DNA from: Centroscyllium fabricii
Taxonomy: Eukaryota
DNA: 64,000 bases
Direction: 5' to 3'
Assembly (NCBI GenBank): GCA_051313645.2
Contig: JBNRSN020000012.1
Span: forward strand, 58,528,001 to 58,592,000
Positions 924-64,000 of the stretch are shown piece by piece. The position numbers and the translations under genes are program-made. Numbering within the stretch: the stretch's first letter is position 1; each line of letters begins with the position of its first letter. A model generated the notes under the pieces. The model was not told the origin of the DNA and did not search any database. It was given only the letters and a program-made list of their open reading frames with translations.

Positions 924-1418
924 CAGGTACACAACCCTTTATCCGAAAACCTCGGGACCGGGCGGGTCTCGGTTTTCGGATAAATACAGTTTTTAGAGTT
1001 GGCCCCAGTGCGCATGCGCATTGCTGTGTTTGCGGCCCAGCTCGCAGCCGGGGAACGGCAGATCGACCGTTTGCAGGGGAGATCGGCCGTTTGCAGGGGA
1101 GATCGGCCGTTTGCAGGGGAGATCGGCCGTTTGCAGGGGAGATCGGCCGTTTGCAGGAGGAGATCGGCCGTTTGCAGGAGGAGATCGGCCGTTTGCAGGA
1201 GGAGATCGGCCGTTTGCAGGAGGAGATCGGCCGTTTGCAGGAGGAGATCGGCCGTTTGCAGGAGGAGATCGGCCGGTTTTTTTCCTCAGCACGGCATCAA
1301 CAGCACGAGATTGGGGTAGGAATGTGTTTCTTCTGCTGCAGCTTAAATCATTTTTTTCTTAAATAAATTGAAGAAAAACTTTGGGTTTTGGAGTTGCGGA
1401 TAAGGGATTGTGTACCTG
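924..1418. mobile_element. Tc1/mariner-pogo-type MITE, subfamily A, with 20/21-bp internal minisatellite
   Basis: TA|CAGGTACACAACCCTTTATCCG ... CGGATAAGGGATTGTGTACCTG|TA; about 10 copies of GATCGGCCGTTTGCAGG(A)GGA at 1061-1274. Confidence 0.9.
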
Positions 1419-1819
1419 TACCAGTGAATCTTTTATATCACCAGGCTTGCTTGTTCTTGGCTAGCCAGTCCTTTTACTACACTTTTTAAACATTCTTTGT
1501 CTCCCCCACAAAGTAATTGTCTATTTACTAATGTATTTCTTTCAATTATTAATAAGACAATATCAATTTAAATCTGAATTTACAGTCATGCATCAGTGTC
1601 TGAGTAGTAATAGTGACAAATGCTGTCCAATTGTGCAACCTCTGTGTATTGCTACCCCATGTATGATACAACCCACATGATACTTAGAAAGGTAGGCACA
1701 TCCTAACATAACTGTTTTTGTTTGTTGTATTACAGTATCCATTGTGTAAGGTCCATTACTGCAGTATTATTTAGGTTATGTTATATGTGCAAAATAAAGC
1801 CTTGCCTTTCTTATGGCAG

Positions 1820-1940
1820 CCCACAGATGAGTTTTCTGACCTCCCACAGCGAATGGCTGAAATTGCAAAGGAGCAGCGGCAGCGACGAGAGAGTCAGCAT
1901 CACGAACATAGAGCTGTACCACCCGTGACAAATGGCACAG
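1820..1940 (+). CDS. LRCH3: LRCH3 internal exon (PTDEFSDLPQRMAEIAKEQRQRRESQHHEHRAVPPVTNGT)
   Basis: ggcag acceptor, CAG|gtaaag donor; phase 0->1; PTDEFSDLP..AEI.KEQR.RRESQ resembles LRCH3. Confidence 0.95.
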
Positions 1941-2481
1941 GTAAAGTAAATCCAGAGTGAGACAGACACAACCTCAGTAATTGAATAAGTGTGGTCATGA
2001 TAGATGACACACCCAGTGAAAATGAAGAAACATTCTGTGCTTGTTAGCATTTATTTCTTTTATAACTTGGCATACGTGCTACATATCAGCCATAGAATGG
2101 AGATTCATTCAATCTGCAAACAGATTGTAAAGGATACTACCATCAGACATGAGAATATCTAATAAATCTTAAAATTTGCCTGGCAAGTAGTTTTACAGAA
2201 AATGGAATATTCATTTTCTTAGGCTGCTGTTGGTGTGACTTCAAATATTTTAAGTGGTTGAACAAGCTTTGTTCTCTTGCAGGTTTTTCAGATACGTTTC
2301 ATTCTAAGGTCTATCATAGTTTATTTTAAAACCAGAAACTTGCCCCGTTAAACCAACTTCCTTCACTTTGAATAACCCATACACACATACAAATACTGTT
2401 GCTCAGTTTTTGCATAATCTTTTATTCTCCAAGTAACAGAATTCTGATTCTGCAGTGACCCCTGATTATTATGCAAAAGGT

Positions 2482-6393: not shown

Positions 6394-6740
6394 ACTGTAT
6401 AGCTTCACCTCCCTGGGATCTTCCTGGTGAATCTACGGTGTATGCTCTCAATGCCTTTTCTATAATATGGTTCCCAAAACAGCACATGGTACTTGAACTG
6501 TGGCTTAACCATTGTTTTGTATAAATGCATCATTACTTCTGTGCTCTTGCAGTCTATGTCCCTATTTATAAAACCCTAAATTCTACTGACATTTTCAATG
6601 CCGCAAACAGTTTCAGTAATTTGCTATGAAAGAGATTATAGAAAAGCAAAGACTAAAATAGTAGGCACAGTGGATGTTTTGTGAGGTAAATAATTTGCAA
6701 ACAGTAGCAGGTTGAAATTATTTTTATATCTTTTTTCCAG

Positions 6741-6889
6741 TTGAACATGACCTAGAGCAGATTGATTACATTGATAGCTGTGCAACAGAGGAAGAGGAGG
6801 AGGAAATGCGATTGTCAAAGCGTCCTGACTCCACCAGCCTCAGCTCACAATTCATAGCATATATTGAACGACGGCGTATTAACTATGAG
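6741..6889 (+). CDS. LRCH3: LRCH3 internal exon (EHDLEQIDYIDSCATEEEEEEMRLSKRPDSTSLSSQFIAYIERRRINYE)
   Basis: ttttttccag acceptor, GAG|gtaac donor; phase 1->0; QIDYIDS and SLSSQF.AYIE motifs. Confidence 0.95.
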
Positions 6890-7039
6890 GTAACTCTTGC
6901 AGCCATCAGTTCTTGACTAAAAACGATGAGAATATTTGCATGTAAAGGCTATATGATTAAGAGTAGCAGTTTACAGGAGCAATGTATATTTATAGATATT
7001 TTGATTTACTACTTAGACTTTGCACCATCTTTGTTAATA

Positions 7040-7752
7040 CAGGTTGAGCACCGTTAATCCGTTACCTGAAAAACCGGCAACTTCGAACGTCCAGCAATAA
7101 TTTCCCCGACTGTTCCGCGCATGCACAAAATAGCTGCCGCGATTGATGCTTCGCCGAATGATCTGCTCATGCGATTGATGCTTCGCCAAATGATCTGCGC
7201 ATGCGCAGATCATTCACAATGGTCTCTCCGAGCCGATGCCGGGCCGTGTCTCCCCGAACGATGCTGGGCCGGGTCTCCCAGAACGCGGGCTGGGACTCCC
7301 CGAACGCAGGCTGGGCCGGGACTCTCTGAACGCGGGCTGGGCCGGGACTCTCTGAACGCGGGCTGGGCCGGGACTGCCGGTACTCTCGGAACGCATGCTG
7401 GGCCGGGACTGCCGGGGCTCTCTGAACGCGGGCTGGGCCGGGACTATTCGAACGCGGGCTCTGCCGGGACTCTCCGAACGCGGGCTGGGCCGGGACTGCT
7501 GGGGCTCTCTGAACCAGGACTGCCGGGACTCTCTGAACACGGGCTGGGCCAGGACTCTCCGAACGCGGGCTGGGCGCCAGGATTTCCCGAACGATAAGCG
7601 CATGCGCAGACCACAAAATGGCCGCCGGCCTTTCGCGGTGGCCATTTTGAATGATCTGCGATTGCGCTTGCCGAAGCTTCAATCATTCGGGATTTTCACT
7701 TTCCCGGCACGGGCCTGGTCCCGCCCATGCCGGATTAACGGTGCTCAACCTG
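7040..7752. mobile_element. Tc1/mariner-pogo-type MITE, subfamily B, with 26/35-bp internal minisatellite
   Basis: TA|CAGGTTGAGCACCGTTAATCCG ... CGGATTAACGGTGCTCAACCTG|TA; ACTCTCTGAACGCGGGCTGGGCCGGG array at ~7225-7590. Confidence 0.92.
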
Positions 7753-8340: not shown

Positions 8341-8417
8341 GCCCCCCCAGCGAAATCAAAGCCCATCGGAGATCCACAAAGAACTGAGAATGGGAGGGGC
8401 TGGCTGCAACAGAACAG
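8341..8417 (+). CDS. LRCH3: LRCH3 internal exon (APPAKSKPIGDPQRTENGRGWLQQNR)
   Basis: Polypyrimidine tract then gaag acceptor, CAG|gtatt donor; phase 0->2 fits both neighbours. Confidence 0.85.
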
Positions 8418-9155
8418 GTATTGCCTTCAGCTTCATCTTGGAGCAAATTTACATGAAAGAATGAAGAATAGTTGTACATTTGAAATCACAAATGTATTTC
8501 AAATCCAGAGCATCCTGAAAATAATTTTACTGGATATATAATTTCTCTTGCTGCAACACATTAGGGCTTATAATTGTAACAGCCAAGACCGGTAAACAGA
8601 AAAAAAGTTATATTATCATGTCCTTTATATATCTCTAATGTAAGTAAAACATTTTAAAGATTTGATAGCACTACAAAATATTCCAAATATGGAAGTACAG
8701 TATCAAGGTGCATTTTTGATTGTGTAGTAGTTAATTAATAACTATTACTGGGATGTGACATTCTTTAATTTATTGTACAGTAATTATTGTCTGTTACATA
8801 TGAATACTGTTTGAGTGAAAGGCAAACTGAGAAAAACCCTGACAAAAAACTTGACAATGTACAGACTTAGTGAGATCAGCTAAATTAGCACAAGCTAAAG
8901 ATCAAAGAGCCCATTGAGGCCTGTGTGTCTTATTGTAACCACAGGTCTGCCTGTGTCTGCCTTTTTCGATGGCTAGGTTATGCTCACTAAGTCTGTACAT
9001 TGTCAGGGTTTTTCCTCAGTTTGCTATCTTTCAGCATGGTCAGGTAATCAGCCATGGTGTACTGTCTGTTTAGGGCCAAATAGCAATCGAGTTTGCTTTG
9101 GGTTTTTGTCGTTTCTTTCCAATATGTCAAATATTTTTCTTTTTGTTTAGTAATA

Positions 9156-9746
9156 CAGGTTGAAGTTCATTAATCCGGCAGGGTCGGGACCAGCACCCTG
9201 CCGGATTGCTGAAAACGCTGAATTATTGAAGTCACGGCGGCACATGCATAAAACCTTCAAAATGGCCGACGCGAAATTTTCAATGCTCTGCGCATGCGCT
9301 CGCCGGTACCTGGCAGTTGATTTTCAGCCCAAGGGTCGGGTGGCACTCGCACTCGATTCTGCTGCGGGTCAGGGAGCGGGCTGCACGGCTCCAGCGGGCC
9401 TGAGGCCCAATGCGCGGCGCACCGCACGCCAGCTTCAGAACGCGGTGACGTCAGCACGCAGCCAGGCAGGAGCCTCCGGTAGCGATGGGCACCAAGCATT
9501 GCCTGTGTCGCTCCCTGCGAAAGGCGGCTGGCACAACAGCTCATCTTCTGGGCCTGGGATTCACCATCGGCAGCGGGGTGGTCACTAAGCCGGGATCCAG
9601 TGAGTATATGTTAGGTGAAAGAGAAGCCCAGCCCCGACGGTGGCCATTTTAAATTGTCTGCGCATGCGCCGGGCAGTCGGGGAAATCTGTGCCGAACGAC
9701 TGAAGCTGCCGGTTTTTCGGGTGCCGGATTAATGAACTTCAACCTG
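9156..9746. mobile_element. Tc1/mariner-pogo-type MITE (B-related) inserted in the LINE
   Basis: TA|CAGGTTGAAGTTCATTAATCCGGCA ... TGCCGGATTAATGAACTTCAACCTG|TA; the LINE coding sequence continues on both sides. Confidence 0.92.
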
Positions 9747-11474
9747 TAATTGTGTTGGGTCGAATTTTCTGTGCTAGGATGTCAGTATCCTGGGGCAGGT
9801 TGTTACTAGTAGTGTTAGTAGTTACTTCACTGAGTCCCAGGACCAGTTGACTGAGGGGACTCTTTATGTTCGCCTCTTGGCATTTCAGGGCTTTGTAGTG
9901 ATAGCAGTGGGGGTTGCTCATTTTTAGATGTTTCCAAAATTTGATGGCTCTTTTTTGGATATTAATTAGTGTTGGATATTGGCCTAACTCTGCCCTGCAT
10001 GCATTGTTTGTGGTTTTCCTCTGAGTCCGGATGATATCTTTACAGAATTCTGCATGTAGGGTCTCAATTGGATGTTTGTCCCATTTTGCAAATTTGTGTT
10101 GTGTTAGCGGACCCCACACCTCACTGCCATAAAGTGCAATTGGTTCAATTACTGATTTAAAAATTTGAGCCAGATGCCAATTGGAATTTCTATTTGGATT
10201 GACTTTTTAATTGCATAGAAAGCCCTTTTTACTTTCTCTTTCAGTTCATTTACAGCCAAATGAAAATATCCCGTAGAACTGATTTTTAAGCCTAAGTATG
10301 TGTAATTTGTAGTTTGTTCAATTTTAGTTGCTCCTAATGTGAGGTTTATTTTGGGTCCCTGATGTCTGGATCTTTGCTGGAACACCAGAACTTTAGTTTT
10401 TTGGGGGTTTATTGTCAGGGCCCAGGTCTGACAGAATGACTCTAGCAGATCAAGGTTCTGCTGTAGACCCTCTTCTGTTGGTGTGAGCAGAACCAGGTCA
10501 TCTGCACAGAGGGGGAATTTAACCTTGGAGTCATATAGGGCGAGGCCAGGTGCTGTAGATTGTTCAAGTAGTTTTGCCAATTATAAATCTTAAGAGTCGG
10601 TGAGATAGATGAGCCCCATGCCACGCCCCTGTGAGAAATATTTTGTTTGTTTGTCTCCAATTTTAATTGCACATTTATTGTTTATATACATTGATTTAAT
10701 TACATCATATGTTTTTCCCCCTACACCACTTTCAATAAGTTTTAAGAATAGACCGTCATGCCAAATAGAATCGAAAGCCTTTTGGAAGTCTATAAAGCAG
10801 GCAAAAATGTTGCTTTTGTTTTGGTGGACATGTTTGTCAATTACGGTGTGTAGGGTGAAAATATGATCCGATGTTCTATAATTTGGTAAGAATCCAATTT
10901 GGCTTTTACTCAAGACATTTTGCTCCATAAGAAAGGTTATAAGTCTTTTGTTTATGATACTACAGAATACCTTCCCCAGATTACTGTTCACACAGATGCC
11001 TTGGTAGTTATTTGGGTCGACTTTGTCTCCACTTTTATATATGGGCGTTACGAGTCCTTTGTTCCAGACATCAGGGAAGTAACCGACACTCAGAACCAAG
11101 TTGAAGAATTTTAGGATAGCCAATTTCAGTTTATCATCAGTGTGTTTAAGCATTTCGTTTAGGATGCCATCTGCACCGCAGGCTTTTCTTGGTCGCAGGT
11201 CCATGAGTTTTTCAAATAGCTCTTTTTCAGTTATAGAGTAGTCTAAGGGGTTTTGGTAATCTTTTACGGTCAGTTTGAGCTTTTCCAATTTTTTACATAT
11301 TTGATCTTGTTCTGGGCTTAGTGTGTTTTTCTGTTATAATTTTTCAAAGTGGTTTTCCCATGTGTCTCCATTTTGAATGGGCAATTCATCGTGTTTTTTT
11401 GTAATGTATTCGAGTTGTCCCAGAAACAATTGGAATCAATAGATTCTTCAGTGGCGCTGAGGTTTTTCTTAATA

Positions 11475-12065
11475 CAGGTACACAATCCCTTATCCGCAAC
11501 TCCGAAAACCGAAAAGCTCCAAAAACCGAAAGTTTTTTCGGAGCGTCACATGATCTGATTTGCGCCAAAATAACTTAATTTGTTTTCTCAGCTGGGGATA
11601 TTGTGCTGTTTTCTGGATCTGAAGTAGCTGGAAATTGGGTATTGTCACCAGTCCCTGCTAGCCAGGATGGTTAGAATCCGAACGCTGAAAGTTTTCATCT
11701 GTTTCCTCCTCCTCAAGGAGCCGAGGTTCATTTTTGCGGCGATGCTGCTGGCCATCGACATCCTGGTCGCCAAGATGACTGCTGGAGCTGGCCTGGTGAC
11801 GGTTGCTAGGGGAGCAGATGCTGCTGGAGCTGGTCCGGTGATGGTTGCTAGGGGAGCAGACGCTACTGGAGCTGGTCCGGTGACGGTTGCTAGGGGAGCG
11901 GATACTGCTGGAGCTGGCCCGGTGACGGTTGCTAGTTTCAGTGCGTAATTCAACACAGCCATGCGTTCTGCGCATGCGCACTGGGCACCAACCCGAAAAC
12001 CGAAATTATCCAAAAACCGAAGACCGCCCGGTCCCGAGGTCTTCGGATAAAGGATTGTGTACCTG
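11475..12065. mobile_element. MITE subfamily A (opposite orientation to 924) with 42-bp internal repeat
   Basis: TA|CAGGTACACAATCCCTTATCCG ... CGGATAAAGGATTGTGTACCTG|TA; about 4 x 42 bp at 11778-11935. Confidence 0.92.
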
Positions 12066-13525
12066 TATACTGTTCTTTCTTGATTGAGTGTTTTTATATT
12101 GTGTTAGCGCCTGACAATAGGCATGGTGTAATTCCTCATTTTCTGGTTGTCTGTGTTTTTGGTTTGATATTTTTCTGAGTTTTTTCCTAATGTTATGACA
12201 GTCTGAATCAAACCATTTTTCATGGTTTTGTGTTTTGGATTTATTCTGGGACGATTTCAAGTTGGACATTGATGCCAAATTCTCAAAAATACTATTTAAG
12301 TTATTCACTGCCAGGTTTACGCCTTCGTTATTTTGAGTGTATGTGTTTTCCAGAAAGGTGTCTAAGAGAGGTTGAGTTAATTGACTGCTAATTGCTTTCT
12401 GGTATTTTTCAGTGCTGTTTTGGGCCCATCTGTATGATTTTTTTATGTTGTACAGCTTACTGGGCTGTGTTTCTGTGTTGGTTGTTTCTGTCCTTTGAAG
12501 ATACGTGGTAATTTGGCTGTGATCTGACAGAGGTGTTTGCGGTTTGACTGTGAATGCTCTGAAAGAGGATGGGTCCAGATCTGTAATCATATAGTCTACG
12601 GTGCTGATGCCAAGAGGTGAAGTCTAGGTTGATTTTCCGAGAGAGTCCCCTCTGAACCTACCATTGACAATGTACAGACCCAGGCTTCGACAGAGCTGCA
12701 GGAGTTGCTTTCCATTTGCATTTGTCTGTTTGTCGTAATTATTCCTGTGTGAATGAAAAGGAAGATCAAAAAGGTTATTCCCAAATATGTAACTATTCCC
12801 CCGAGTACTAATAATGTCTGGTTCTTCACCAGTTCTTGAGTTGAGATCACCACAGATCAACACATTTCCCAGGGCCTGGAAATGGTTAATCTCCCTTTCA
12901 ATGTTGGAGAAGGTGTCCTCTTTGAAGTACGGGGATTCTATAGGGGGGGATATAGATTGCGCAAATGAAATATTTCTGCCTGCTCGAAATAATGTCTTTC
13001 TTAATCTTGAGCCATAAATTATTTTCGCCCTTTTTTATAAAGTCATTGTAATTCCTAAGCTCTGCTTTAAACCAAATCAGTATGCCTCCGGAGTCTCTGC
13101 CCTGGGTTACTCCTGGCAGTTTATTGGAGGGAACTACCCGGTGGACCCCTCTCCTCTACACCAGGTTTCTTGCAAAATAATAATGTCCAGATCTTTGATT
13201 TCATCTAAGAACTCTGGGATCCTGCTCTTCAAACCAAACACATTAGAGCGTAGGCCTTGGATATTCCAGGTTGAGATGCACAACAATTTCATGTTAAGAT
13301 TGGTCATTTACTGTAATTTTTCATGTGTGGGATGGGCCAGTCATTGTCCTTCCTGCTCCATAAGGCGGGAGCAGATGATGCTGAGCATCTGCTGTATGTC
13401 TCTCCATGGGTTGTCTCTGCCTGCAGTATTTCTTACCGCCTGAGCATAGCTCCATCGGTCGGGCTGGAATTCCTGCTGCTGGGGTGGGCCTGCCATCCTG
13501 GGAGGTAGTCACCCAGCCGATTGGG

Positions 13526-13814
13526 TGCCCGCCCGCCACCTTTCAACGGCGGGGTTCCCGCCAGGCGGGTTTTGGGTGGGAAGAGGGCTAAAATAGTTGA
13601 GGGCCCTTAAAATAGGATTACCCATCCAATTAAGAGCTCTCAACGAGCTCATTCTGCATCCCTGCCGGCGGCCGGTGGGAAACATTCGGGGCGGGAAAAC
13701 CCGCCCGAGGAAAATCGCAAATGGGCGGGGATCCGGCTTCCCGCCCGCCGGAATTGTGATTTTTAGACCCCGCCCCGCCGGAAACCCGCCCTCACGGCCC
13801 TCCGAAAATCCCCC
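13526..13814. mobile_element. Right half of a GGGGGATTTTC-ended non-autonomous DNA transposon (Harbinger-like)
   Basis: Ends GAAAATCCCCC; shares GAGGGCCCTTAAAAT..CCAATTAAGAGC with 32181-32939. Confidence 0.65.
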
Positions 13815-14430
13815 TCAAGGGCTCAAAAATTGGAGCTTTGTGTCAAAATTTGCATATTATACTAAATTGAGGGTATAGCTAATAATGTGGAGCACTGCAC
13901 AGTCGCTCTCGCTCGTTTGTTCACTGATGTGTGCTTTACTGCCTGTGCTCCCCATGGACCTCCACCTGTTACATTAACTTCATGCTCTCCTGTTCCTTTT
14001 CCCCTTCTTACTCTCTATGCCTTTCCCTCCTCTTCTCCCCTCCCCTCGCTATTTTTGTCTTCTCTTACCTTACCCATTCCCCCTTTGTAGCCTTGGTACT
14101 GCTCTTCCTCCTCCCCTGTTGTCACCAGTCCTGTTCTTCATTCACCCTCCCCCTCTCCCCGTCAGACAGAGTGCACTCTTGCTCACCGTTAAGAGTTCAG
14201 GGGGAGGGGGGTAGCAAGGAAACAGGGACACAGCTGCCGGTGTGCTCCTGGCCACTGGCTTTGGAGCCTACTGGCTGTTATGGGGTCATTGTGGGAGGCT
14301 TGTGCCATCATGTCTTCCAGCTACCCCTGCAGGCTCTTCGGTCCAGCAGGATTCTGATGCAGCCCCACCACAAGGTGCCTTTGCTGAAGTGCGAAATCCG
14401 GACACCTCATTCCCATCTCGTTTACGTCCT

Positions 14431-19871: not shown

Positions 19872-20216
19872 CAGGTTGAGTAATCCTGGCACTCTCGGGA
19901 CCAGGCCGCTGCCGGACCACTGAAAATTCTAAACCACTGACGGTTCGGGTAGAGCGCGCGGGTAGAACACTCTCTGGGGCGGGGCCTGGAGCGCGCGGGT
20001 AGAACACTCCCCGGGAGGGAGCCCGGGGATAGAGCACTTACAAGCCTGAAAAAAACAGAAACCTAAACGCCTGACGCCTTCGGCGCTCGCCCACCCTTCA
20101 TAGGAAACGGTGGCGCCGCTGCCGAGCGGCTGCTCCAAAGACCGCCGGTTTCGATTCGTGCCGGACAACTGAAATGTTCCGGACCATCGGGTGCCGGATT
20201 ACCGGTGCTCAACCTG
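19872..20216. mobile_element. Short MITE (B-related) with ~37-bp internal repeat
   Basis: TA|CAGGTTGAG-TAATCC (small deletion) ... GGATTACCGGTGCTCAACCTG|TA. Confidence 0.85.
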
Positions 20217-40388: not shown

Positions 40389-40421
<33 letters not shown>

Positions 40422-47337: not shown

Positions 47338-48027
47338 GTAATCAGTTGTACATTTGCTCACCAGAACAGAAGCATCATTGCACAAACCTGCAGTAAATAA
47401 AATCCACGGAGAATGTATTAATGTGCTAATTGTAGAATGATTCCAATTGGTACTTTTTTTTACCGGGAAATATATTCATCTTGACTTCATTTATTTTCTT
47501 GTCGTCCATTCCTTCTCTTTACCCCCTCCCCCCTGCCAAAATAAAATTGGAGCCTCGCGTTGTGCATAGCTAGCTGATCAGAAATTCACCTAGCATTAGA
47601 GCTCAGACTATTTCTGTTATTGCACTAAGGCTAGATTTATCACAGAAGTCTGAACATTTTGTTTTAATAATTAGCACCTTTACATCCCTACCCCATTCCC
47701 ACAATTTTATCCCACAGGGACTTCTATGCAAGCAGTTTTTTTTAAATTCTTCCCTTTCCCTTCATGCCACCCAATCCATTCCACTCTGGCTCAGAAGAGC
47801 ACGTCCAATGCAACAATAGGAGTTTTTCCACGTATTCACTAGGAACTGGCCCAAACTCATTAACATAGGATCCTTACACTGTGACAGCAGACTAAAATTA
47901 CTTTATCCCATCAACCTGTGTTGAATTCAAGCACAAGTTCCAGAACTCAAAGGTCAGTGCATCACCCAGCCATCCCCTCCACTTAATGATCAAATAGTTG
48001 TACATTTCTCTCTGGTTTCTTTCTCAG

Positions 48028-48165
48028 AACATTGAAACACGGTTAAAAGTTTCTCTCCCAAGTGATCTTGGTACAGCACTTACAGATGGTGTTGTCCTCT
48101 GTCATCTGGCTAATCACGTGAGACCACGGTCGGTGCCCAGCATACATGTCCCATCTCCAGCAGTG
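48028..48165 (+). CDS. LRCH3: LRCH3 calponin-homology domain exon (NIETRLKVSLPSDLGTALTDGVVLCHLANHVRPRSVPSIHVPSPAV)
   Basis: ttctcag acceptor, GTG|gtgagt donor; DGVVLCHLANH CH motif. Confidence 0.97.
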
Positions 48166-49334
48166 GTGAGTATTCTGAAGTCTGATGCTATCAAAACAAT
48201 GACATTAGTGACAAATATATCAAGCTTTTCTGTCAGAGTAAGGAAGTGGGCAATAGTTGCATCCAGACAGTGACGTAATTATGAAGAATTTAGCCATAAT
48301 TAAGCTGGTGTGCTCATATAACCCAATTCGTGCATGTTCTTCTTCAGTTCTTTTATTTTTATAAATTAAATCTTGGTTCCCTTGATGACCTAATAAGTAA
48401 ATGCACTTTATGGTAAACCAGAAAGATCAGGAACAGGCAAAGATTGCCTGGTCTGTGCTGAATTAAGTTAGCCAGGCATGAATAGAGCAGAGGGAGCTCT
48501 ACACTTGACCTCCGCTTTTGTGGGGATCGTTACTCCTGCTGGAGAGAGAGAGAGAGAGTGTATCTGCGTTGTGTGCAGACTGGATAGGAATAGACTCATG
48601 TGATCAAATAACCAGTTGATACTCTTGCTTGGGCTCACATGGGCACTTAGGTGATGTGCTGGAGGGGTTCCGGTGCTTTTAGAACAGTGCGTGCATGTTC
48701 AACAGGGGAGAAAAATGTAAATGAATTTCTCGAAAATGCACATAGTAACTTCACCGTAGCCAATTAATCTTCTCTTGTTTTAAGCACTGTTGTGTTTGTT
48801 GAGATGAATACATCAGATTGCTGATTTTAGCACTAGGCTATCAGTGGCATCACACTGTTATCTTTCAGTAATTTTAATAACATTTAAAAGTTTAACAGTG
48901 CTTGTTTTTTCCACTTTCCAACTTTCTTCCCTTTCCTCCTCTGCTGATGACATTGACATGCTCACTGAGGTGCATTTTCAAGGGCTCCCTTTGGTGTGTT
49001 GTCACTGTTTAACAATACCTGTTTTAAAGAATCTCCAGTGAAAAGTGTAATCAGATCTTTTTATAATTAATAATGCATAATGGGATTTCAGCTGGAAGGT
49101 CCAAAAGTTGAGCTAGTATCTCAAACCTTGGTGTGATCAGCTCATGGTGAGAACTGCTTTGCTGTTTCCCATGCGTTTATAATTGCAAGGATTGATTGAA
49201 TTTCAGGATTTGTTCTCTATGAATGTTTCCAGCTTTCCCCCTCCCCCTCATCCTTTATCAAACCCTCTCCTGCCCTCACTACCACGGACTGTTCACTGAC
49301 TGAGTTTGCTTGCTTGTTCCACTTCTGGTTGCAG

Positions 49335-49412
49335 CCCAAACTGACAATGGCAAAATGCAGACGAAATGTGGAGAACTTCCTAGAGGCTTGTAAGCGAATT
49401 GGTGTACCACAG
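49335..49412 (+). CDS. LRCH3: LRCH3 CH domain exon (PKLTMAKCRRNVENFLEACKRIGVPQ)
   Basis: ttgcag acceptor, CAG|gtatg donor; highly conserved LRCH motif. Confidence 0.97.
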
Positions 49413-50250: not shown

Positions 50251-53154
50251 TCAGTATCCCGTCCCTGCCTTCTCTCCGTAACCTTTAACCCCTTTTGCCT
50301 GCAGAAATATATCTAATTCCCTCTTAAATATATTTAATGAGCTGGCGTCCACTGCCCTCTGTGGCAGTGAGTTCCACAGGTTCACCACTCTCTGGGTGAA
50401 GAAATTCCTCCTCATCTCTGTCCTAAATGGTTTAGCCCTTATCCTTAAACTGTGTCCCCTAGTTCTGTACTCTCCTGCCATCGGAAACATTCCTTCTGCA
50501 TCTAGTCTGTCCAGGCCTGTCAGAATTTTATATGTTTCTATGAGATCCCCTCTCAATCTTCTAAACTCCAGTGTGTACATCCCCAAACTACATAGTCTCT
50601 CCTCATAGGTCATTCCTGCCATTCCTGGTATCAGCCTGGTGAATCGCCGCTGCACTCCTTCCATGGCAAGAACATCCTTCCTCGGATGAGGCGACCAAAA
50701 CTGCACACAGTACTCGAGGTGTGGTCTCACCAGTGCCCTGTACAGCTGTAGTAAGGTGTCCTTGTTCCTGTATTCTAACCCTTTTGATATGAAGGCCAGC
50801 ATACCATTTGCCTTCCTGACCGCCTGTTGCACCTGCATGCTCGCCTTCAATGACTGGTGCACAAGAACACCCAGGTCTCTCTGTACTTCCCCATCTCCCA
50901 ATCTATTGCCATTTAAATAATAATTTGCCCTCCCGTTTTTGCCCCCAAGGTAGATAACTTCACACTTATCCACATTATAGTGCATTTGCCATGTATCTGC
51001 CCAGTCCCCCAATTTGTCCAAATCGCTCTGGAGCTTCCTGATCTCTTCTTCTGAGCCTACCCCCCCTCCTAGTTTAGTGTCGTCTGCGAATTTGGAGATG
51101 CTGCATCCGATTCCCTGATCTAGGTCATTAATATAAATTGTGAACAGCTGGGGACCCAGGACAGATCCCTGAGGTACCCCACTTGTTACTGCCTGCCATT
51201 CAGAAAATGAGCCGTTTATTCCAACTCTCTGTTTTCTATCTGCCAGCCAGTTCTCTATCCACGTCAATACTTTTCCCCTTATCCCATGAGCCTTGATTTT
51301 ACATGCTAATCTTTTATGTGGGACCTTATCGAAGGCTTTTTGGAAGTCCAGGTACACCACATCTACTGGCTCTCCCCCATCTATTTTACCAGTTACTTCC
51401 TCAAAGAATTCCAATAGATTCGTCAAGCACGATTTACCTTTTGTAAATCCATGTTGACTCTGTCCTATCCTGTCCCCATTTGCCAAGTGCTCTGCTATTA
51501 CATCCTTAATGATGGACTCTAGTATTTTGCCCACCACCGATGTAAGGCTTACAGGTCTGTAATTACCTGCTTTTTCCCTACCCCCCTTTTTAAATAGTGG
51601 GGTAACATTAGCTACCCTCCAATCCATGGACACTGTTCCCGAGTCTATCGAATTCTGGAAAATTATCCTTAAAGCATCTGCTATCTCTAGGGCCACCTCC
51701 TTGAGTACCCTAGGATGCATGTTATCAGGCCCTGGGGATTTGTCAGCCTTCAGTCCCTTTAGCTTCCCCAACACCATATCCTTAGAGATATTGATTTTTG
51801 TCAGTTCCTCCCTTCCAATTGTCCCTATGGTTCCCGATATCTCAGGGAGGTTTTTTGTGTCTTCCTTTGTGAAGACAGACCCAAAATATGCATTTAATTG
51901 GTCTGCCATTTCCTTATTTCCCATTATATATTCCCCAGAATCTGACTGTAATGGACCGACTTTGGATTTCACCAGTCTTTTCCTCTTAATATACTTGTAA
52001 AAGCTTTTGGAGTTAGTTTTTATGTTTGCCGCAAGCTTACTTTCGTACGCTATTTTTCCCCTCCTGATTAATCCCTTTGCCCTCCTTTGTTGTATCCTAA
52101 ACTGTTCCCAATCTTCAGGTCTGGTGCTTTTTTTGGCTATTTTATATGCCCTTTCTTTGGATTTTATGCTGTCCCTAATTTCCCCTGTTATCCACGGTTG
52201 AGTCACCTTTTTAGATTTCTTTTTATGCCAGATTGGTATAAACAATTTCTGCAATTCTGCCATTCTGTCTTTAAATGCTTGCCATTGTTTATCCACCGCC
52301 AGTCCCCCCAGAAACGCTGCCCAATCAGACTTACTTAATTCCCGTCTCATGGCATCATAATTCCCCTTATTTAAATTCAGGACCTTAGTCTCTGAGTCAG
52401 TTTCTTCGCTCTCCATTTCGAGTGAGAATTCGATCATGTTATGATCGCTCTGACCCAAGGGTCCCCGTACAACAAGATTACTAATTAGTCCCTTCTCATT
52501 GCACAGTACCCAGTCCAAGATAGCCTGATCCCGAGTTGGTTCCTCGACATATTGATCCAGATAACCATCCCTTAAACACTCAAGGAATTCCTCCTCCTCA
52601 TTATTTTTACTAATTTGGCTAGTCCAATCTATATGCAAGTTAAAGTCACCTATGATGACAGCTGAGCTCTTATTGCACGCTTCTCTAATTTCCCTTTTAA
52701 TGCCCTCCCCTACCTCCATAATACTATTTGGAGGCCTATATACCACTCCTATTAACATTTTCCGCCCCTTGCTATTTCTTAGTTCTACCCATATAGATTC
52801 CGTATTAACCGAGTTAATATCCTTCCTTTCAATTGCATTTATCCCCTCTTTTACCAGCAATGCTACCCCTCCTCCCTTTCTTTTTTGTCGATCCTTCCTA
52901 AATATTGAATACCCCTGTATGTTAAGTTCCCAGCCTTGCCCATCCTGCAGCCATGTTTCCGTAATCCCAATTAGATCATATTTGTTTACCTCTATTTCTA
53001 CTGCTAATTCATCCACCTTGTTCCTAATGCTTCTTGCATTAAGGTATAAAGCCTTCAGGCTTGTTTTTTGCTCACACTTTTTATGAATTACTTTGGCCCT
53101 TTGTGTATTTTGTTTTTTGTTTCTCACCCTTTTACCATTTATTTCTGGCTGCAT
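50251..53154 (-). CDS. CR1 ORF2: AP endonuclease and reverse transcriptase (967 aa)
   Basis: YLNARS, ITETW, GDFN, SDH; QHGF, LDFQKAFD, GVPQGSVLGP, FADD. Confidence 0.97.
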   Translation of the reverse strand: MQPEINGKRVRNKKQNTQRAKVIHKKCEQKTSLKALYLNARSIRNKVDELAVEIEVNKYDLIGITETWLQDGQGWELNIQGYSIFRKDRQKRKGGGVALLVKEGINAIERKDINSVNTESIWVELRNSKGRKMLIGVVYRPPNSIMEVGEGIKREIREACNKSSAVIIGDFNLHIDWTSQISKNNEEEEFLECLRDGYLDQYVEEPTRDQAILDWVLCNEKGLISNLVVRGPLGQSDHNMIEFSLEMESEETDSETKVLNLNKGNYDAMRRELSKSDWAAFLGGLAVDKQWQAFKDRMAELQKLFIPIWHKKKSKKVTQPWITGEIRDSIKSKERAYKIAKKSTRPEDWEQFRIQQRRAKGLIRRGKIAYESKLAANIKTNSKSFYKYIKRKRLVKSKVGPLQSDSGEYIMGNKEMADQLNAYFGSVFTKEDTKNLPEISGTIGTIGREELTKINISKDMVLGKLKGLKADKSPGPDNMHPRVLKEVALEIADALRIIFQNSIDSGTVSMDWRVANVTPLFKKGGREKAGNYRPVSLTSVVGKILESIIKDVIAEHLANGDRIGQSQHGFTKGKSCLTNLLEFFEEVTGKIDGGEPVDVVYLDFQKAFDKVPHKRLACKIKAHGIRGKVLTWIENWLADRKQRVGINGSFSEWQAVTSGVPQGSVLGPQLFTIYINDLDQGIGCSISKFADDTKLGGGVGSEEEIRKLQSDLDKLGDWADTWQMHYNVDKCEVIYLGGKNGRANYYLNGNRLGDGEVQRDLGVLVHQSLKASMQVQQAVRKANGMLAFISKGLEYRNKDTLLQLYRALVRPHLEYCVQFWSPHPRKDVLAMEGVQRRFTRLIPGMAGMTYEERLCSLGMYTLEFRRLRGDLIETYKILTGLDRLDAEGMFPMAGEYRTRGHSLRIRAKPFRTEMRRNFFTQRVVNLWNSLPQRAVDASSLNIFKRELDIFLQAKGVKGYGEKAGTGY

Positions 53155-53201
53155 TTTGCTTTCCTCTTTTTCACTACATAGGTTCCTAGCCCCCTGCCAT
53201 A

Positions 53202-54146
53202 CTAGTTTAAATGCTCCCGAACTGCTTTAGCAAATATTACCCCGAGAACATCAGTTCCATCTCTGCCTAGGTGTAGACCGTCCCTTTTGTATAGGTCACA
53301 CCTCCCACAGAACTGGTTCCAATGCCTCAAAAATTTTAAACCCTCCCTCTTACACCACTGCTCAAGCCACGTATTCAGCCTCTCTATCCTGCTCTCTGTA
53401 TTCTGACTAGCACGTGGCACTGGTAGTAATCCAGAGATTACTACCTTCAAGGTCCTACTTTTCAACTTAGCTCCTAGCTCCCTAAATTCTGCTTGTAGGA
53501 CCTCCTCCCTTTTTTTAGCTACATCGTTGGTACCAACATGTACCACGACAACTGGCTGTTCCCCCTCCCCCTCCAGAATGTTCTGTACCCGCTCCGAGAC
53601 ATCCTTGACCCTTGCACCAGGGAGGCAACATACCATCCTGGAGTCTCGGTCACGGCCACAGAAACTCCTATCTATTCCCCTTACGATTGAGTCCCCTATC
53701 ACTATAGCCCTGCCACTCTTTTTCCCGCCCTTCTTTGCAGCAGAGCCAGTCATGGTGCCATGAGTCTGGCTGCTGGTGCCTTCCCCTGATGAGTCATCTC
53801 CCCCAACAGTACCTAAAACGGTGAACCTGTTTCGAAGGGAGATAACCGCAGGGGATTCCTGCACTACCTTCCTGCCCTGGTTCTGCCTTTTGGTCACCCA
53901 TGCCCTGTCTACGCTGGCCTTTACCTGCGGTGTGACCAACTCCCTGAATGTGCTATCCACAACCATCTCAGAATTGTGGATGCTCCAAAGTGAGTCCATC
54001 CGCAGCTCAAGGGCCACCATGCGGTCCCTCAGGAGCTGCAGCTGGACACACTTCCCGCACACATAGTTGTCAGGGACACCGGAAGTGTCCCTGATTTCCC
54101 ACATGGCACAGGAGGAGCATGACACAGGTCTGAGCTGTCCTACCAT
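53202..54146 (-). CDS. CR1 ORF1: zinc finger/zipper plus SGNH esterase (314 aa)
   Basis: CSSC..CGKC, IGDSIVR, HVGTND, DGLHL. Confidence 0.95.
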   Translation of the reverse strand: MVGQLRPVSCSSCAMWEIRDTSGVPDNYVCGKCVQLQLLRDRMVALELRMDSLWSIHNSEMVVDSTFRELVTPQVKASVDRAWVTKRQNQGRKVVQESPAVISLRNRFTVLGTVGGDDSSGEGTSSQTHGTMTGSAAKKGGKKSGRAIVIGDSIVRGIDRSFCGRDRDSRMVCCLPGARVKDVSERVQNILEGEGEQPVVVVHVGTNDVAKKREEVLQAEFRELGAKLKSRTLKVVISGLLPVPRASQNTESRIERLNTWLEQWCKREGLKFLRHWNQFCGRCDLYKRDGLHLGRDGTDVLGVIFAKAVREHLN

Positions 54147-57100
54147 GACTTAACCCTTATATTACCTTTTAATTTACTAGTTTTAGCTTATTTCTTAACT
54201 TTTACTTCCTGAAGCTACTTTGGCTTATTTATTAACTTTTACTTCCTGAAGCTTACTTTAGACCGATCTATAAAGTACCCTTCGTTTCCTTTCTAGATTT
54301 ACTGAATCCCACTACTTTTAGTAGTTTTTAGAAAAGTTTGAGGAAAGTACTCACCAGTCCCTTGCCTCCTGTTGGGAAGGCTTTCTCTGTCCTGGAACCC
54401 TTTCCACCTAGGTTGGGCTCCTGAAAATAAAAATAATTTGAACTTACCTTTTTAAAATCACTCTAACCCCCTAAGGTTAGAGGAGGATGGAAGGGTTGTG
54501 CGATTGAATCTATTTACCATTAGAGCATTAGTCTATAGAGACTGAATGTTGAATTCTGTTTTTAATTACATGGTTTTCTAGAATTTTTACTGGAATTTTG
54601 GGATTGAATTTTGCAGCTCCAACCATTATTTTATGAAAAATATAAACCTGAGGCATTTAACTACGCCGTAACAAGTCTTTTTTTTTAAATTAGCCAAGCA
54701 ATTGCTAAGCTGCTGAATTCTGGAACTGGTGTTGGTATGCACTGTGGATGCTTTACATTTAGAATACAAATTTACTGATGACTACAATTTTGTCTTTATA
54801 GGTCTACTTCTTTTGACAGGTCTTTAATTACAATATTTAACTTGTCTATTAAACTACTCAGCAGCTGTGAATTTGTGATCTAAAGGTGTATTTTTAAGTC
54901 TTCTAAGGATTCCTCACTTCAGCAATATTCTGTGTTTTCAGTGGCCTAGGTCTCCTATCAAGTGTGAATTTTATGTTCTGGGGCATGGAGGGGTGGGGGT
55001 TGGTTAAATGAATGTTTTAAGGCAGGTGACCTGATGAATCTTTTGGCTGCATGTATACCTGCATGTGCTGAAAAAGCTTTCAATTCTCTAACAAGTTATA
55101 ACTTAACATACTTTGACTGTATTTAGGCCAGATCATAATGTTTCTGCTTTCTGTAACCTTTTTCACACTGTGTTGGGGCATGACAGCATATTGAACATCC
55201 TGTTCTCTCAAATGAGAAATTTCACACACATCCTACTTGTTTCAGCTGAGAGGATCGAGCAGTTCAGGCCAAGAACAACTACAGTAGTGTAATGAAGGCA
55301 ATGCAGGCCAGCCTGTGTACTGCAGCACTTCCTGTAATTGTCACTGTTACTTCCTGTCCCACTTTTTTGATGGTACCCCTATTGGAGTAAAACAGCATAT
55401 CTTCTGACACAACATGAGCAATGCCGTGGGAGATCTCCAGCAATTGGTTACTATCTGGGAATACATATTGTGTATAAAATAACCTGCAAACCACAGAAAT
55501 TAACCTTGTACCCTAATACCCACTGTGTAATGCTGTAATCCTCAACTCCATATGGTACTGAACTTCAAAATCTCCTCTGCCAGTGTGCATCGCAATTGGC
55601 TAACAGCAGTGCAGTCATTATGTAAATGCACTTATCATTAAACACATACAACATATTGTAATCTACCTCAAAGGATTCGAAGAATGTTCGCAAAGCACTG
55701 GTCTTGCGGTTTATGATTTCAAATCAATCTTTTCTGTCCCAGCAGCGTATCCCATTCCTTCACGCTTTTGTTAAATATGTATTGATCTGGTCTAAATTCC
55801 TGTTTTATGTTAGCATAAACTATAAAAGACAGTATCCATTCTTATAATAGCTTATCACCAATGTCATTGTTTATTTCAAATAATATGTTATGTTCCTAAG
55901 ATTCACCAGAGTCTTAAATTGTTTGGCAGTGATTCTTATTGAGTCTAGCTCAAGGATGTGCTGTAAAAATTAAAATCATAACTAGTTGTAAATTTAAAAT
56001 ATTTAGCATTTAAAGATTGAGCAGCAAAGTTTTAAATGGATCACAAAAGCTGGGAAACAAGTGAATATTTTTTATATTTACAATGAGAGGGTGTAAGGTA
56101 AAAATGTTGTTTCCCCCCATTAAACTTCCCCTGTTCCCTGTCACAGGAAAGGAGGATGACTTCCTTGCAGGCCTGTACATATTCTGCTTTGCAGCTAGCT
56201 GCTATCAGGTGTCCAAGTTGCTATCTCTCTGAATCCCTCTCCTTGGAATCTACTTGTTCCTGCTTTTCTTTCTTTCTTGTACTTAGTGGGAAATCAAATG
56301 CAGAAGTGCAATCAGAACAGTTTTCATATGCAACGGTTGCATCTAGCAGCTGTAACTTTTGTTGATTCTGTGAAAATTATACCATTAGAACTTCAAACCA
56401 TTTTTAAAAAATCTATAAATAAGACGACCTTTTTGTAGACATGATGTTGGGACAAGACAAACAACTTAAGAATTGCAGAATTACTGCATTCATCTTTTAC
56501 CCAAGCCCTAATTAAATTCTTCCCCTCCACCTTAAGGCTTCTATCTTCCAAACATGTTTTCCAGAGAGGAATTCAGGAGTTTCCATTCATTACTTTTAAC
56601 AATTGTTACAATCACTATTTGTGCAGTAGTCAGTGCTGACATGTGGTGCTCCACAATGCAGCCTGGCTGACCACTAAAAATGTCCCAGCAGTGGCAAGTG
56701 GACACCCATGATGCAGTGATGATTGGAAATTGAATCCAGTGGTGTAGCTCCCACAGTAACTGGCCTATCCTAGTGTTCAAACTCTAATTTGGATGTAAGA
56801 ATATAGTTAAAATGAGCAACAGCAACCCGTTTCAACTTCTAAAGCACAGAAGTTCATCTGTGTAAAAAGAATTTCAGTTAAACTGCCTTGGTAAATTGAA
56901 ACAAATGATCTAATAGATTTTCAAAAGTTAAATCAACGAATCACTGTTTGACTCTTGGGAAATCTCCCACAACAAGGAGGGAAAGATGAGAGTAGCTGGT
57001 AATCAGAAACAGTATTTAAAGTTAATGCTCCCTTTAAACTGGATACTGTCTTTTTGAAGTTAATTGTGCACCCTGTGTTTATTGCGCATGAGTCTGAAAC

Positions 57101-59820: not shown

Positions 59821-61229
59821 AGGGCTCTTGTCATATGTAGATTTGAATAGTAAATTAACACTATAGCCCCAGTAAAATCCTGTAACTTTGAAGAAACAGC
59901 AGTAAATAAATGTATCAACTTTCTGCAGAATTGAAAAATATTTAAAATTCAACTGATTCTGTGGTGTAGCAAGGGCTCACTGAAGTACATCAGTATGAGG
60001 ATTAACTCAAGATTACTGTTGGTTTTATGTAATGTGGCAGGTGGGAATCTATAAACTGTTTAAATTGCCGTTTTAAAAAATAAAGCTTTTTAATTTATGA
60101 AAGCATTATAAATAGAAATTACCTGACCGAAACATTTGCTTTCCAGTGAATGTTCCAATTCATATGGGTTTTTCATTTAACAGTGAGAAGATCACTACTG
60201 ATAAAATATAAAACCAATTCATTTGTTTGTAGTGGTAAATTATAGATTCTTACTACATGTTCTTTGTCAATTTTTGTCTGAGGATTTTATTTTTCTAATT
60301 ATTTATTGATTTTATTACATTACTGTACAGTATTTGTATAAAACCAAGATTGTTAGAAGTGATTTAACCGTGCAGTAGCTTTTACATATTTTAACACTGA
60401 GTCCATCATTTTTCTTAACTGATGAGGAAAGGCATAAGTAATACATTTGCAACTTGTCTCACGATGGATAACCTTGACGGTCTGGATCGCTACTTGGTAT
60501 TTTAGTCCAGGTCCCACTTGTTCTTGCTATTCAAAGTTCTGTCTGTGTAATGCATTCTGAAGATAAGTCTGCAGTGAATTAACATATCAATAATTGAGAT
60601 TCTATTTGCTGCCTTTTATTCATTTTAAATAGGAATTTTACACACAAATCACTATAGCACTACATTTAATATCTTGCAAGTGGGAAAGAGTTTTCTAATT
60701 TTTTAAATCAAACCTAACCCAACATCTTTTTAAAAACGTTTATCTTCCCTCACACACACATAGCAAGTGTACAGCAGTACTTTTTGCTTCCATTGAAGTT
60801 GAGAATATAAATAGGCATCCAAAAATCACCTAGCCTAGAGCAAAATACAGTTTTATTGCTTTTTTGCATTTCCATCATCTGTCAGTCACATTGTGGGCAC
60901 AAGTGCATGAAGATCTGCGTTAGGGGGTGAGATTTAGCCTTTTGTTGGTGGGATTGGTTGGGGATAGACTCCTGAAGTTACCATTGGCAACTGCACCCCT
61001 GCCCCTCTCCCACTTTGTTGCTGCTCATCTGCTTTCCTCAATTAATTTGTATGCAAGCAGTTAGTGTTCACAAGTTAATTTTGATGTCTTATATTGTCAT
61101 TTCGTTTTTCAGGTCTTCCATTTTTTAAGTTTGGTTTTATCTTTTCACATGTATGTCATTTGTTAATTTTGTTTTTCTCCCCTCTCTTCTTTTATTCCCC
61201 TCCCTTTCTCTTTTTTTCATTTTGTTTAG

Positions 61230-61337
61230 GATCGATTGTGCCTGCCCCTTCACATTCTAGAAGAGAAAGGACTGGCACAGGTAGCCGTGACTATAGAAAC
61301 TCTGCTTGAGCTCGCCCCTACCAAACAGCACCATTAA
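61230..61337 (+). CDS. LRCH3: LRCH3 alternative terminal exon, soluble isoform (DRLCLPLHILEEKGLAQVAVTIETLLELAPTKQHH*)
   Basis: Very long pyrimidine tract then tttag, phase 0; LCLPLHILEEKGL.QVAVT..LLELAP motif. Confidence 0.94.
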   Translation, partial: DRLCLPLHILEEKGLAQVAVTIETLLELAPTKQHH

Positions 61338-63827
61338 TCAACTGTCTAGAGACTGCAAGTGATGGGCACCTCACCCAAGAAACACTGTAACAGCACAATA
61401 GAATATGCTCCAAGTTGGTCTCCATGGTGATCACATTTATCACTCTCTTTAGCATCTGCATGATGACTTTCTGACTTTTCAGTTCCATCAGCCAGTTGCT
61501 AAACATGACTTTTTTGATCCCTCTATTCTGTTACTTTTCCAAAAAGGCAGCACTCCATTTGTTTTCCAACTTGGGTACCATGATCCAAATAGTTTTCATA
61601 GTAGCATTTAAAATGGTGATACATTGCACAGAGTAGATTTACTAACAGGCCTAGGAACTAGATCAAGAGATCTCCCTTCATAACTCTAATCTAGTGAGTA
61701 GCTCGACTATATGCATTGGATTTCTAATTTGACATAGCTCAATGTTTGCCTTGTGGCCAATAAGGTATGATTTAGCTTGAATAGTCAGCACAATCTGAGA
61801 CATAAATAGGAATAAGAAATTCACAATAAAGTTACACATAATACTCAGTATAATTTTACTTGATTTCCAGACATAAGTAGGAGTAAGAAATTCACAAACA
61901 GCAGCAGAATTTCCCACGGTGTGAGAAAAATATTCTTTTAATGTTGCCTGTTCTCTGTCTGGTAGGAAATACTATGAGAAGTTGCACAAGTGCATGAAAA
62001 TCTAGTCAGCAGCTTTTTTTTGTATAGGAATGGTATATTTCACCGGTAGCTGAACCCCACTGAATACTGTAAAGGGAATGTTACATGGTGTTTCTAGAAG
62101 ATCATTTCTAGAAATTATACTGTACTCTTAAATGGATCAGTACTGTATGAATTGTTCCAGGTTTGGTTACAGGGTTTCCTTTGTCCTGGCTATATATTTT
62201 TAAGCACTGTTACATAGGTTTTCCTTTCTGTTGGCTTCATGTATGCATTTTTATAATCTATCTAAATGGTTTAATTGTGCTTCTAGAATTGACACTTAAT
62301 ATTTGTTAGATTATGTTCATGCAGTATACATATGTATCTATTTATTCATAGCACACAAGTATGATAATACAACCACTAAATAACCCCTGGTTGCTCAGCT
62401 GTACTTGAGTCATGTAGTGAATAGCACTTTATCATGAAGTAGCATTGATAATGCTGTCAGTCAACTTTGTGACATCAGAAAGAAACGTAACTGTCTGTAG
62501 TGTAGGCTTTCTACATGAATTATAGTACCTTCCACTACATTCTTAATTTATGTGTCTACATTTTTATGAATAGTATAAACTGAATACAGTGAGAAATAGT
62601 GGGATACAGAGTTCATGTCAGTTTTAATTGAGCACTTATCCATCCTTTTATGACTTAAATTAGTTGTGGGTTATGACTTGAAAGGTGTCCTTGTGGAATA
62701 AATTGTGCACCCACTGTTTCTCATGGTGTAATTAATCTCTATTTAAACTTAAATGTACACTTGTAATAATTATAAACCTAAAATGTTCAAACTTGCATAT
62801 GATTGAATTATTCTTGTAATCCACCTTTAAACAATTTGGATGCTAGCACCAAACTTTTGTCGTGATCTTTGCCAAAGTGATTTATTTTAACATTTCAATG
62901 TGTTTTTCTTTACTTTAAGCTTGGGATAGCTTTTAAGTGCAGCATAGGTAGCCAGCAGAAGGAAGTTCTGTTTTTTTTTATTTATGACTTGAACAGATGG
63001 AGTTTTGCCTGCACTTTCCTTTTTCTATGTAAATACATTCCATGTGTTCTAGTTTTTATGTAAAACAGTTCACATTCCTCTTCGAGTACAGCTGTGTTTC
63101 AAATTATTGTGTTTTTATTTTGTGTTATGCTGTATATGGTTTTATGATTTTGTTACCAAATGTTGATCACCTTGTTACTTGTGTTTTCATTTTTGTCATT
63201 TCAAGTCCACTAACCAATATCTGATTGATTGTTAGAAACCAGTTGACCTTTAAAAAAGTTACTTTGATCTGAGGTGGAAATGGTCAGGACCAGGTTAAAA
63301 TCTTTCACATTGACTTTGAAGTGAACTGAGCTGTACAAACCCACTTCAGTTACAGTAGTTTTCACCAGCCATGTTTCTCCTCTTCAAAACCCGCTGAGCA
63401 GAAAAGTGCATCATTCTTGTTCACAGATACTATCTGGAACAACTTGAATTATGCCTTACTGGGACAGCAGCCGTTTGTTTGTGGGCTTGATTCCAACGCA
63501 GAAACACTAACTTTAAAGCCAGACTCAGTGAGGTTATATCATCTTTTCGAGATGTTTCTTTTTATTTGAAAGGGCAGACAGGGGTAAGTAACAGTGAGGA
63601 GTAGAGTGACTTTTAAAATGGATTTTCGATTAGCAGTCATCATAGGAAAGCATTATTTGGGCTCTATTCTCTGATTATGTTACAGTGAGCTGGAGGTGCG
63701 GGGTGGGGTTCATTTTTGATGAGCAAATAGAATTTTGCCTGCCACATTTCAAAAGGATCCGCTGGATTGCAGCAGTTAGAGAGCAGCACTGAAGCAGCAA
63801 CGTTGCAGCTGCTGACAGTTACTTGTA

Positions 63828-64000
63828 CAGGTCTGACACCGTTAATCCGGCACCATCGGGACCAGGCCGGTGCCGGACTAGTGAAAAATCCGAACGACTG
63901 AAGCTTTGGCGAACACATGCACAGACCATTCAAAATGGCCACCGCGCATGCACAGGCCATTCAAAATGGCCACCACGCATGTGCAAACCATTCAAAATGG
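63828..64000. mobile_element. MITE subfamily B (reverse orientation, cut by window end) with 31-bp repeat
   Basis: TA|CAGGTCTGACACCGTTAATCCGGCAC; repeat unit CCATTCAAAATGGCCACCGCGCATGCACAGG. Confidence 0.85.

Follow-up and report, generated by a model that had tools for sequence, protein, structure and literature searches.

The 64,000-bp stretch analyzed here (the window) is from Centroscyllium fabricii (NCBI GenBank assembly GCA_051313645.2, contig JBNRSN020000012.1, positions 58,528,001 to 58,592,000 of the forward strand). It is vertebrate gene DNA, with a Pfam calponin-homology exon at 47998–48270 and several long interspersed nuclear element (LINE) reverse transcriptases, and carries seven small elements that are bounded by TA and end in terminal inverted repeats (TIRs). 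The elements were labeled by their starts, E1 (924), E2 (7040), E3 (9156), E4 (11475), E5 (19872), E6 (30405), and E7 (63828), and their two unequal arms were named A and B. All seven starts given in an earlier reading of the letters (the original prediction) were exact, and the six complete elements (E1–E6, 345–732 bp) terminate in ACCTG-TA, as it had stated; E7 is truncated by the window end. TA was found at all 13 visible flanks. The TIRs are 22–25 bp long and begin with CAG, with 0–3 mismatches per 22 bp in five of the six complete copies and a 5-bp deletion in E5.

Two elements carry TIRs of group 1: E1 (924–1418, plus strand, 495 bp), with the A arm on the left and TA at 922–923 and 1419–1420, and E4 (11475–12065, minus strand, 591 bp), which lies in the orientation opposite to E1. 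The E1 TIRs are complementary at 20/22 positions, and one of the two mismatches is also present in E4. TIR group 2 comprises E2 (7040–7752, minus strand, 713 bp), with the A arm on the right and a perfect 22-bp TIR, and E6 (30405–31136, minus strand, 732 bp), which is identical to E2 at 93% of the A arm and 81% of the B arm. E3 (9156–9746, plus strand, 591 bp) has its own perfect 25-bp TIR and sits in a LINE, the same one that hosts E4, with an exact 2-bp TA duplication. E5 (19872–20216, plus strand, 345 bp) has the deletion in its left TIR, and only the left end of E7 (63828–64000, plus strand) is visible.

Pairs of the form TA-CAG...CTG-TA with TIR complementarity of at least 17/22 occurred five times in the window and not at all in 100 block-shuffled windows; E5 fails this strict test because of its deletion. 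Profile searches of the 64-kb window started from the arms returned the seven A arms and six B arms, and no eighth or decayed copy. The arm pattern gave no matches in prokaryotic genomes, as expected. The window holds seven elements in 64 kb, without any near-identical pair. TAA stands immediately left of the TA (plus strand) in five of the seven insertions, regardless of orientation (919–923, 7035–7039, 9151–9155, 11470–11474, and 30400–30404), and the mirror TTA on the right in 0/6; among TA sites in general, the background is 2.4% (TAA) and 1.5% (TTA), and a post hoc Fisher test gave p = 0.02.

The host of E3 and E4 is a decayed LINE (8944–13292, minus strand, Pfam RVT_1) with homologues in fish. 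In three of the ten named homologues, the alignment breaks off with the codon whose last base is 9748, and the next residue resumes at 9154; the other seven are uninformative at this junction, as they stop short or overrun. Since the LINE continues across E3 without a gap, the insert is 593 bp (591 + 2), and the TA duplication is seen directly. At E4, a frameshift near the junction blurs the same comparison with the empty site. The TA duplication and the TIRs together place the elements in the Tc1/mariner class, and all seven are one non-autonomous Tc1/mariner lineage. DINE-1 and pearl elements are defined by a TT/AA site and subterminal repeats; here the repeats are truly terminal and the duplicated site is TA.

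The more specific part of the predicted class, pogo affiliation, is likely but unproven. Judged from the letters of the ends, the lineage is probably of the pogo/Tigger4 type: 12 of the 13 element ends agree at 14–16 positions, none of them identically, with the printed 20-nt TIR of TcMar-N17_AC from the anole, described as Tigger4-like (PMC3014272). A score of at least 14/20 was reached at only four other positions of approximately 128,000 in the window. Tigger4 is the same as Zombi (PMC5753468), and intact Tigger elements with TIRs of 18–23 bp are reported in Chondrichthyes (PMC9219625); a matching TIR was looked for in the supplement of that paper and not found. Tigger4/Zombi-type elements resemble the present ones in their TA duplication, TIR of approximately 22–25 bp starting with CAGGT, and size (350–730 bp), but the interiors described here are GC-rich, array-bearing, and different between copies.

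An autonomous transposase with the same TIRs, which the original prediction had proposed to look for, was not found among the window open reading frames (ORFs). No Pfam family scored above cut-off in the 68 ORFs of at least 45 aa that overlap the elements, and no Pfam transposase was found in 143 other window ORFs of at least 75 aa. Coiled-coil matches on the E1 array were below cut-off and produced by the repeat itself, and they were discarded. Searches for Rfam families inside the elements gave just two weak matches, far under the gathering score. The elements are small, non-coding, and like MITEs (miniature transposable elements with inverted repeats), of the type mobilized in trans.

The A arms of all seven copies align nearly gap-free over approximately 65 columns around an invariant CGGGACC, which implies a common ancestor for both TIR groups and bears out the proposal of a single family for all seven ends. 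Within the first 64 bp of this arm, 20 of the 21 pairs are 12–47% apart, and E2/E6 alone are close (3%, two differences). The division into two TIR subfamilies proved too coarse: there are at least three variants, namely group 1, group 2, and the 25-bp TIR of E3. As the latter is unlike that of E2 yet perfect on both sides, the differences are inherited subfamily marks. The "matching arms" of the original prediction match loosely. E1 and E4 have approximately 97 bp (86%) and 40 bp (95%) in common, and E2 and E6 differ by 7% and 19% in their A and B arms. No two copies are close in both arms. The seven are therefore compatible both with cores that are fixed within subfamilies and track arm type, the refuting case of the original prediction, and with rapid turnover of the core; each copy may be its own subfamily.

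A rough insertion clock was taken from the left–right TIR mismatch within elements (4/110, 3.6%), omitting E5 and leaving uncounted the asymmetry common to E1 and E4. Divergence was above this clock in the A arms of E1/E4 (12.5%, p = 0.02) and in the B arms of E2/E6 (19%, p = 1e-4). The latter pair is less similar in its B arms than in its A arms (p = 0.002), and E3 is equidistant from both in either arm (25–30%). This suggests that E2 and E6 are a mosaic pair with an exchanged arm, a single case recognized from arm comparison.

The A arm contains a subterminal hairpin around CGGGACC (9175–9204 on the plus strand in E3), located at the same columns in all seven copies. In its 10-bp stem, 87% of cells are paired across the seven A arms, and two-sided changes are found at 7/10 pairs. 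None of 500 shuffles scored as high, and slid registers gave 27–46%. Folding z-scores were −2.0 to −5.3 in five of the seven A arms, and E7 was weak. The B arms had no consistent hairpin (z −1.8 to +1.6). Unequal arms with a subterminal hairpin are also a feature of Tigger4. The covariation pattern would be expected both from selection for a symmetric protein-binding site and from template-switch correction of a quasi-palindrome. The covarying hairpin at the same columns in seven copies and the apparently mosaic pair are what is new here.

Palindromic modules are repeated within the arms: all nine exact copies of GCGCATGCGC and all eight of CAAAATGGCC in the window fall inside elements. These motifs resemble NRF1 and YY1 sites, and no paper tying NRF1- or YY1-like motifs to such elements was found in the literature searched. 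The CpG observed/expected ratio is 0.8–1.06 in the elements versus 0.35 outside them; this absence of depletion might be due to youth or to shielding against methylation.

Four of the six complete copies have an internal tandem array within intact ends, and E7 has one in addition. Tandem Repeats Finder (TRF) agreed with the predicted arrays, giving units of 21 bp (E1), 26/35 bp (E2), 42 bp (E4), 30/60 bp (E6), and 31 bp (E7), and with the array-free state of E3, the interior of which (approximately 9300–9640) is GC-rich and non-repetitive. Two of the predicted cores did not hold. The "~37-bp array" of E5 (19952–20025) consists of two degenerate copies 16% apart, unreported by TRF at score 40. 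The 31-bp "core" of E7 (63916–64000) is not central; it begins 88 bp from the element end and is a triplicated A-arm module, which is single-copy in E2, E3, and E6.

The E1 array (1060–1275, plus strand) has four 20-bp units followed by six 21-bp units and a partial one; with 1.0% substitutions between units, it is young. The E4 array (11773–11935, plus strand) repeats a 42-bp unit 3.9 times, with 9.5% divergence between copies, and is unrelated to that of E1. The E2 core (7234–7590, plus strand) is composed of 21–35-bp units made from 8–9-bp blocks; its 26-mers are 20% apart, and a single 9-bp block distinguishes them from the 35-mers. A separate 32-bp duplication in two copies lies in the E2 B arm, outside the core (7139–7205, plus strand). 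The E6 core (30625–30978, plus strand) has nested 5/15/30/60-bp periods, with alternate 30-mers 0–3% apart. The nested periods of E6 and the block-built units of E2 fit repeated local slippage. When unit divergence is set against the TIR mismatch of 3.6%, the arrays of E2 and E4 look older than the insertion, and those of E1 and E6 as young as the insertion or younger.

The prediction that different cores stand behind matching arms was confirmed for E1/E4, the only pair in which related ends clearly enclose unrelated interiors; the whole interior is concerned and not the array only. A 16-bp resemblance between the E1 and E4 cores that was spotted by eye was not above the null and was rejected. 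For E2/E6 the prediction probably fails, as their cores look divergently expanded rather than swapped. Both cores stop at one shared arm position, and of the 15 core pairs this one alone exceeds shuffle level (score 43 versus a shuffle maximum of 29; p = 0.011 and 0.026 under repeat-preserving nulls), the other 14 being at shuffle level. Core comparison therefore indicates, with modest support, that both probably grew from one seed, diverging on expansion. Each array unit occurs once in the window, with at most those of E2 and E6 related. Donors for the unique interiors (E1, E3, E4, and E5) were not found within the 64-kb window, which is a weak test.

Long-period arrays were defined by a period of at least 20 and a score of at least 100, and overlapping rows were merged by hand. 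Six of the nine such arrays are inside the elements, which occupy 5.7% of the window (p = 2e-6, without GC correction), and so are 40 of the 69 most GC-rich sub-windows. Seven GC-rich segments lie outside the elements, and two of these, each apparently some other mobile element, contain arrays as well. The claim that the elements seed minisatellites is thus upheld as to enrichment; as unrelated GC-rich repeats hold arrays too, the enrichment is not clearly family-specific. The unrelated non-autonomous TIR element at 21679–23009 has CAGGG ends and apparent 5-bp TTAGT flanks, and carries a 29-bp array of 8.3 copies at 22204–22441. The GC-rich insert at approximately 36820–37410 contains a 60/65-bp array (37175–37405) and adjoins LINE-type 3′-tail-like sequence on the minus strand; it is perhaps a non-autonomous retroelement with an array.

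We consider it fairly probable that the elements form a diverse pogo/Tigger-type lineage with constrained ends and GC-rich interiors, in which local duplication and, from time to time, replacement would have produced many subfamilies. On this reading, the seven copies are better taken as a sampling of several subfamilies than as a single scaffold with a swappable slot. Such elements would move by cut-and-paste in trans, using a transposase encoded elsewhere that would require the ends only: the TIR and, on one arm, the subterminal hairpin, which paired changes maintain and which may be a second binding site in inverted form. The interior, rich in GC, CpG, and palindromes, would be unconstrained. 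Through slippage or template switching, the element may copy short pieces of itself, in its arms no less than in its middle, and these may expand into minisatellites. The arrays of E7, E2, and E6 were shown to be of local origin, and it is the molecular route that we infer. The E2 and E4 arrays would predate insertion and ride on a master copy, those of E1 and E6 would be as young as the insertion or younger, and an interior or arm may be replaced now and then (E1 versus E4; E2 versus E6). Several observations weigh against this account. The hairpin register was set from one member, kinship of the copies inflates the shuffle test, and the E5 A arm has no hairpin fold (z = 0.0). At 16443, within a LINE, the TcMar-N17 TIR is matched by chance at 18/20 positions. 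The TIR clock is based on just 110 positions, and the A arms of E2/E6 (7.4%) show no significant excess over it (p = 0.29), so this pair may be one subfamily on the A arm, in line with the original prediction. The homology of the E2 and E6 cores is modest: at the unit level it has p = 0.037 without correction for the 36 pairs compared, and 0.032 was obtained for a pair that is unrelated. The E1 and E4 interiors have no detectable shared sequence, for which local duplication alone cannot account. No two of the six complete copies have the same interior. An all-distinct sample (n = 6–7) requires approximately 8–10 or more equally common subtypes, a pattern that rapid turnover would fit as well.

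Three other explanations overlap in part with the preferred one and with each other. The copies could belong to fixed, ordinary subfamilies in which arm type predicts the core and only copy number varies, probably catalogued anonymously in de novo libraries. The TIR and arm differences are subfamily-like, and there are precedents in the DINE-1 subtypes of D. willistoni (PMC2374699) and the anole hobo-N elements (PMC3014272). We regard this as possible though on balance rather unlikely, given that all seven copies are distinct and that the nearly identical A arms of E2 and E6 are joined to different B arms and differently grown arrays. The dedicated slot of the original prediction, taken here as a hypervariable center on one scaffold that frequently generates or captures arrays, for instance through template switching in post-excision gap repair, seems unlikely to us. 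It would explain the common ends and separate interiors of E1/E4, the distinct interiors of the six complete copies, the shared end point of the E2 and E6 arrays, and the enrichment of arrays in elements; gap-filling capture is also documented for animal TIR elements (PMC8277862). However, duplications occur in the arms too (63916–64000 and 7139–7205), the E2 and E6 cores look homologous, the arms are 12–47% apart over the first 64 bp in all pairs but one, no donor was seen in the 64 kb of the window, and two unrelated repeats have arrays as well, so a single defined slot with interchangeable cores was not borne out. Finally, the arrays could be ordinary GC-rich minisatellites that arose after insertion, unlinked to transposition. 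The units of E1 (1% apart) and the alternate units of E6 (0–3%) are of TIR-clock age or younger, and two of the seven outside GC-rich segments hold arrays; the units of E2 (20%) and E4 (9.5%), more diverged than the near-perfect TIRs, suggest arrays older than the insertion, and we find this explanation improbable, more so than the preceding two. A bolder reading, in which a Tigger-type lineage that is young and very abundant, in the genome of what is probably a cartilaginous fish, would serve as a transposition-linked minisatellite generator, its near-identical ends repeatedly gaining new interiors and new units and swapping arms, appears about as doubtful as the slot.

Shared ends around different central repeats are already published for DINE-1, pearl/DTC84, miDNA4, Xmix, and anole hobo-N, so the architecture is already known from other elements; an account of this lineage itself was not found in the literature searched, where one query was swamped by an ambiguous term and subscription journals were thinly covered. 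MiDNA4 is a Xenopus Tc1/mariner MITE, and Xmix/Xstir is a Xenopus T2-MITE related to Kolobok (PMC12628747, PMC9659126, PMC6004289). Both are vertebrate MITEs with an internal array of variable copy number, and miDNA4 is of the same superfamily; as summarized in reviews, each has one satellite motif, whereas here related ends enclose several units of 20–60 bp. DINE-1 has conserved ends around non-homologous central repeats, and the three D. willistoni subtypes each have their own subterminal inverted repeat and central repeat (PMC2374699). The flanks of pearl/DTC84 are called a "cassette" for internal repeats (PMC3879986). These systems thus share with the present one the conserved ends around unrelated central repeats, and differing ends go with differing repeats in one genome; they are proposed to be Helitron-like, with TT/AA sites and 50–500-bp units, in contrast to TA cut-and-paste and 20–60 bp here. 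The anole hobo-N1 to N15 elements (hAT) have similar ends, family-specific centers, and mosaic arms from inter-element recombination (PMC3014272), and the Pack-TIRs are animal TIR elements that capture filler DNA (PMC8277862). In the descriptions given there, their centers are captured fragments of transposable elements or genes, not minisatellites, and hobo belongs to another superfamily. Minisatellites are reported to arise from short repeats inside transposable elements (PMC6947457), and TcMar elements to make up 2–3% of skate and ray genomes (PMC12361510).

The elements are most likely a further vertebrate example of transposons that breed and spread tandem repeats, from a group of genomes whose curation is poor. 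A family of this sort would be split or collapsed when a consensus is built, which makes the example useful to curators of repeat libraries. The covarying hairpin is a testable candidate cis-element for pogo-type transposition. Should many unrelated units stand behind identical ends genome-wide, they would represent thousands of independent, datable minisatellite births on one scaffold, and the origin of the first duplication could then be tested directly. If the generator reading were true, nearly every insertion would seed a different GC-rich variable number tandem repeat, together with CpG-rich promoter-like motifs, into introns.

E1–E6 appear to be intronic. The host gene is presumably LRCH-like, with exons at 1822–1940, 6740–6890, 8341–8418, 48030–48166, and 49336–49412. 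The window LINEs have homologues in fish, turtles, shark, and stingray, and a 31-bp inverted repeat (8844–8874 and 8983–9013) is located at the 3′ end of the LINE hosting E3 and E4. A nested inverted structure at 31576–33010 has 38-bp perfect outer arms and approximately 157-bp inner arms (31616–32180), and the GC-rich element at approximately 32180–32940 is related to one at approximately 13470–13820. A TIR element with GGGCCAGAAATTGCAGT ends (34540–35703) is broken by an insert resembling a short interspersed nuclear element (SINE), and 145-bp inverted SINE-like arms are found at 35151–35295 and 36029–36173. Inverted arms of 63 bp at 40148–40796 surround 5S rRNA-like sequence (40350–40463, Rfam 58.7 bits). 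The CR1-type LINE at 50254–54149 (minus strand), in which ORF2 is open over 991 aa and ORF1 is of the GDSL-esterase type, is possibly young; its best named matches are from turtles (44–45%), and a stingray protein matches at 51% over a third of the length. Further CR1 fragments are located at 14.4–17.9 kb.

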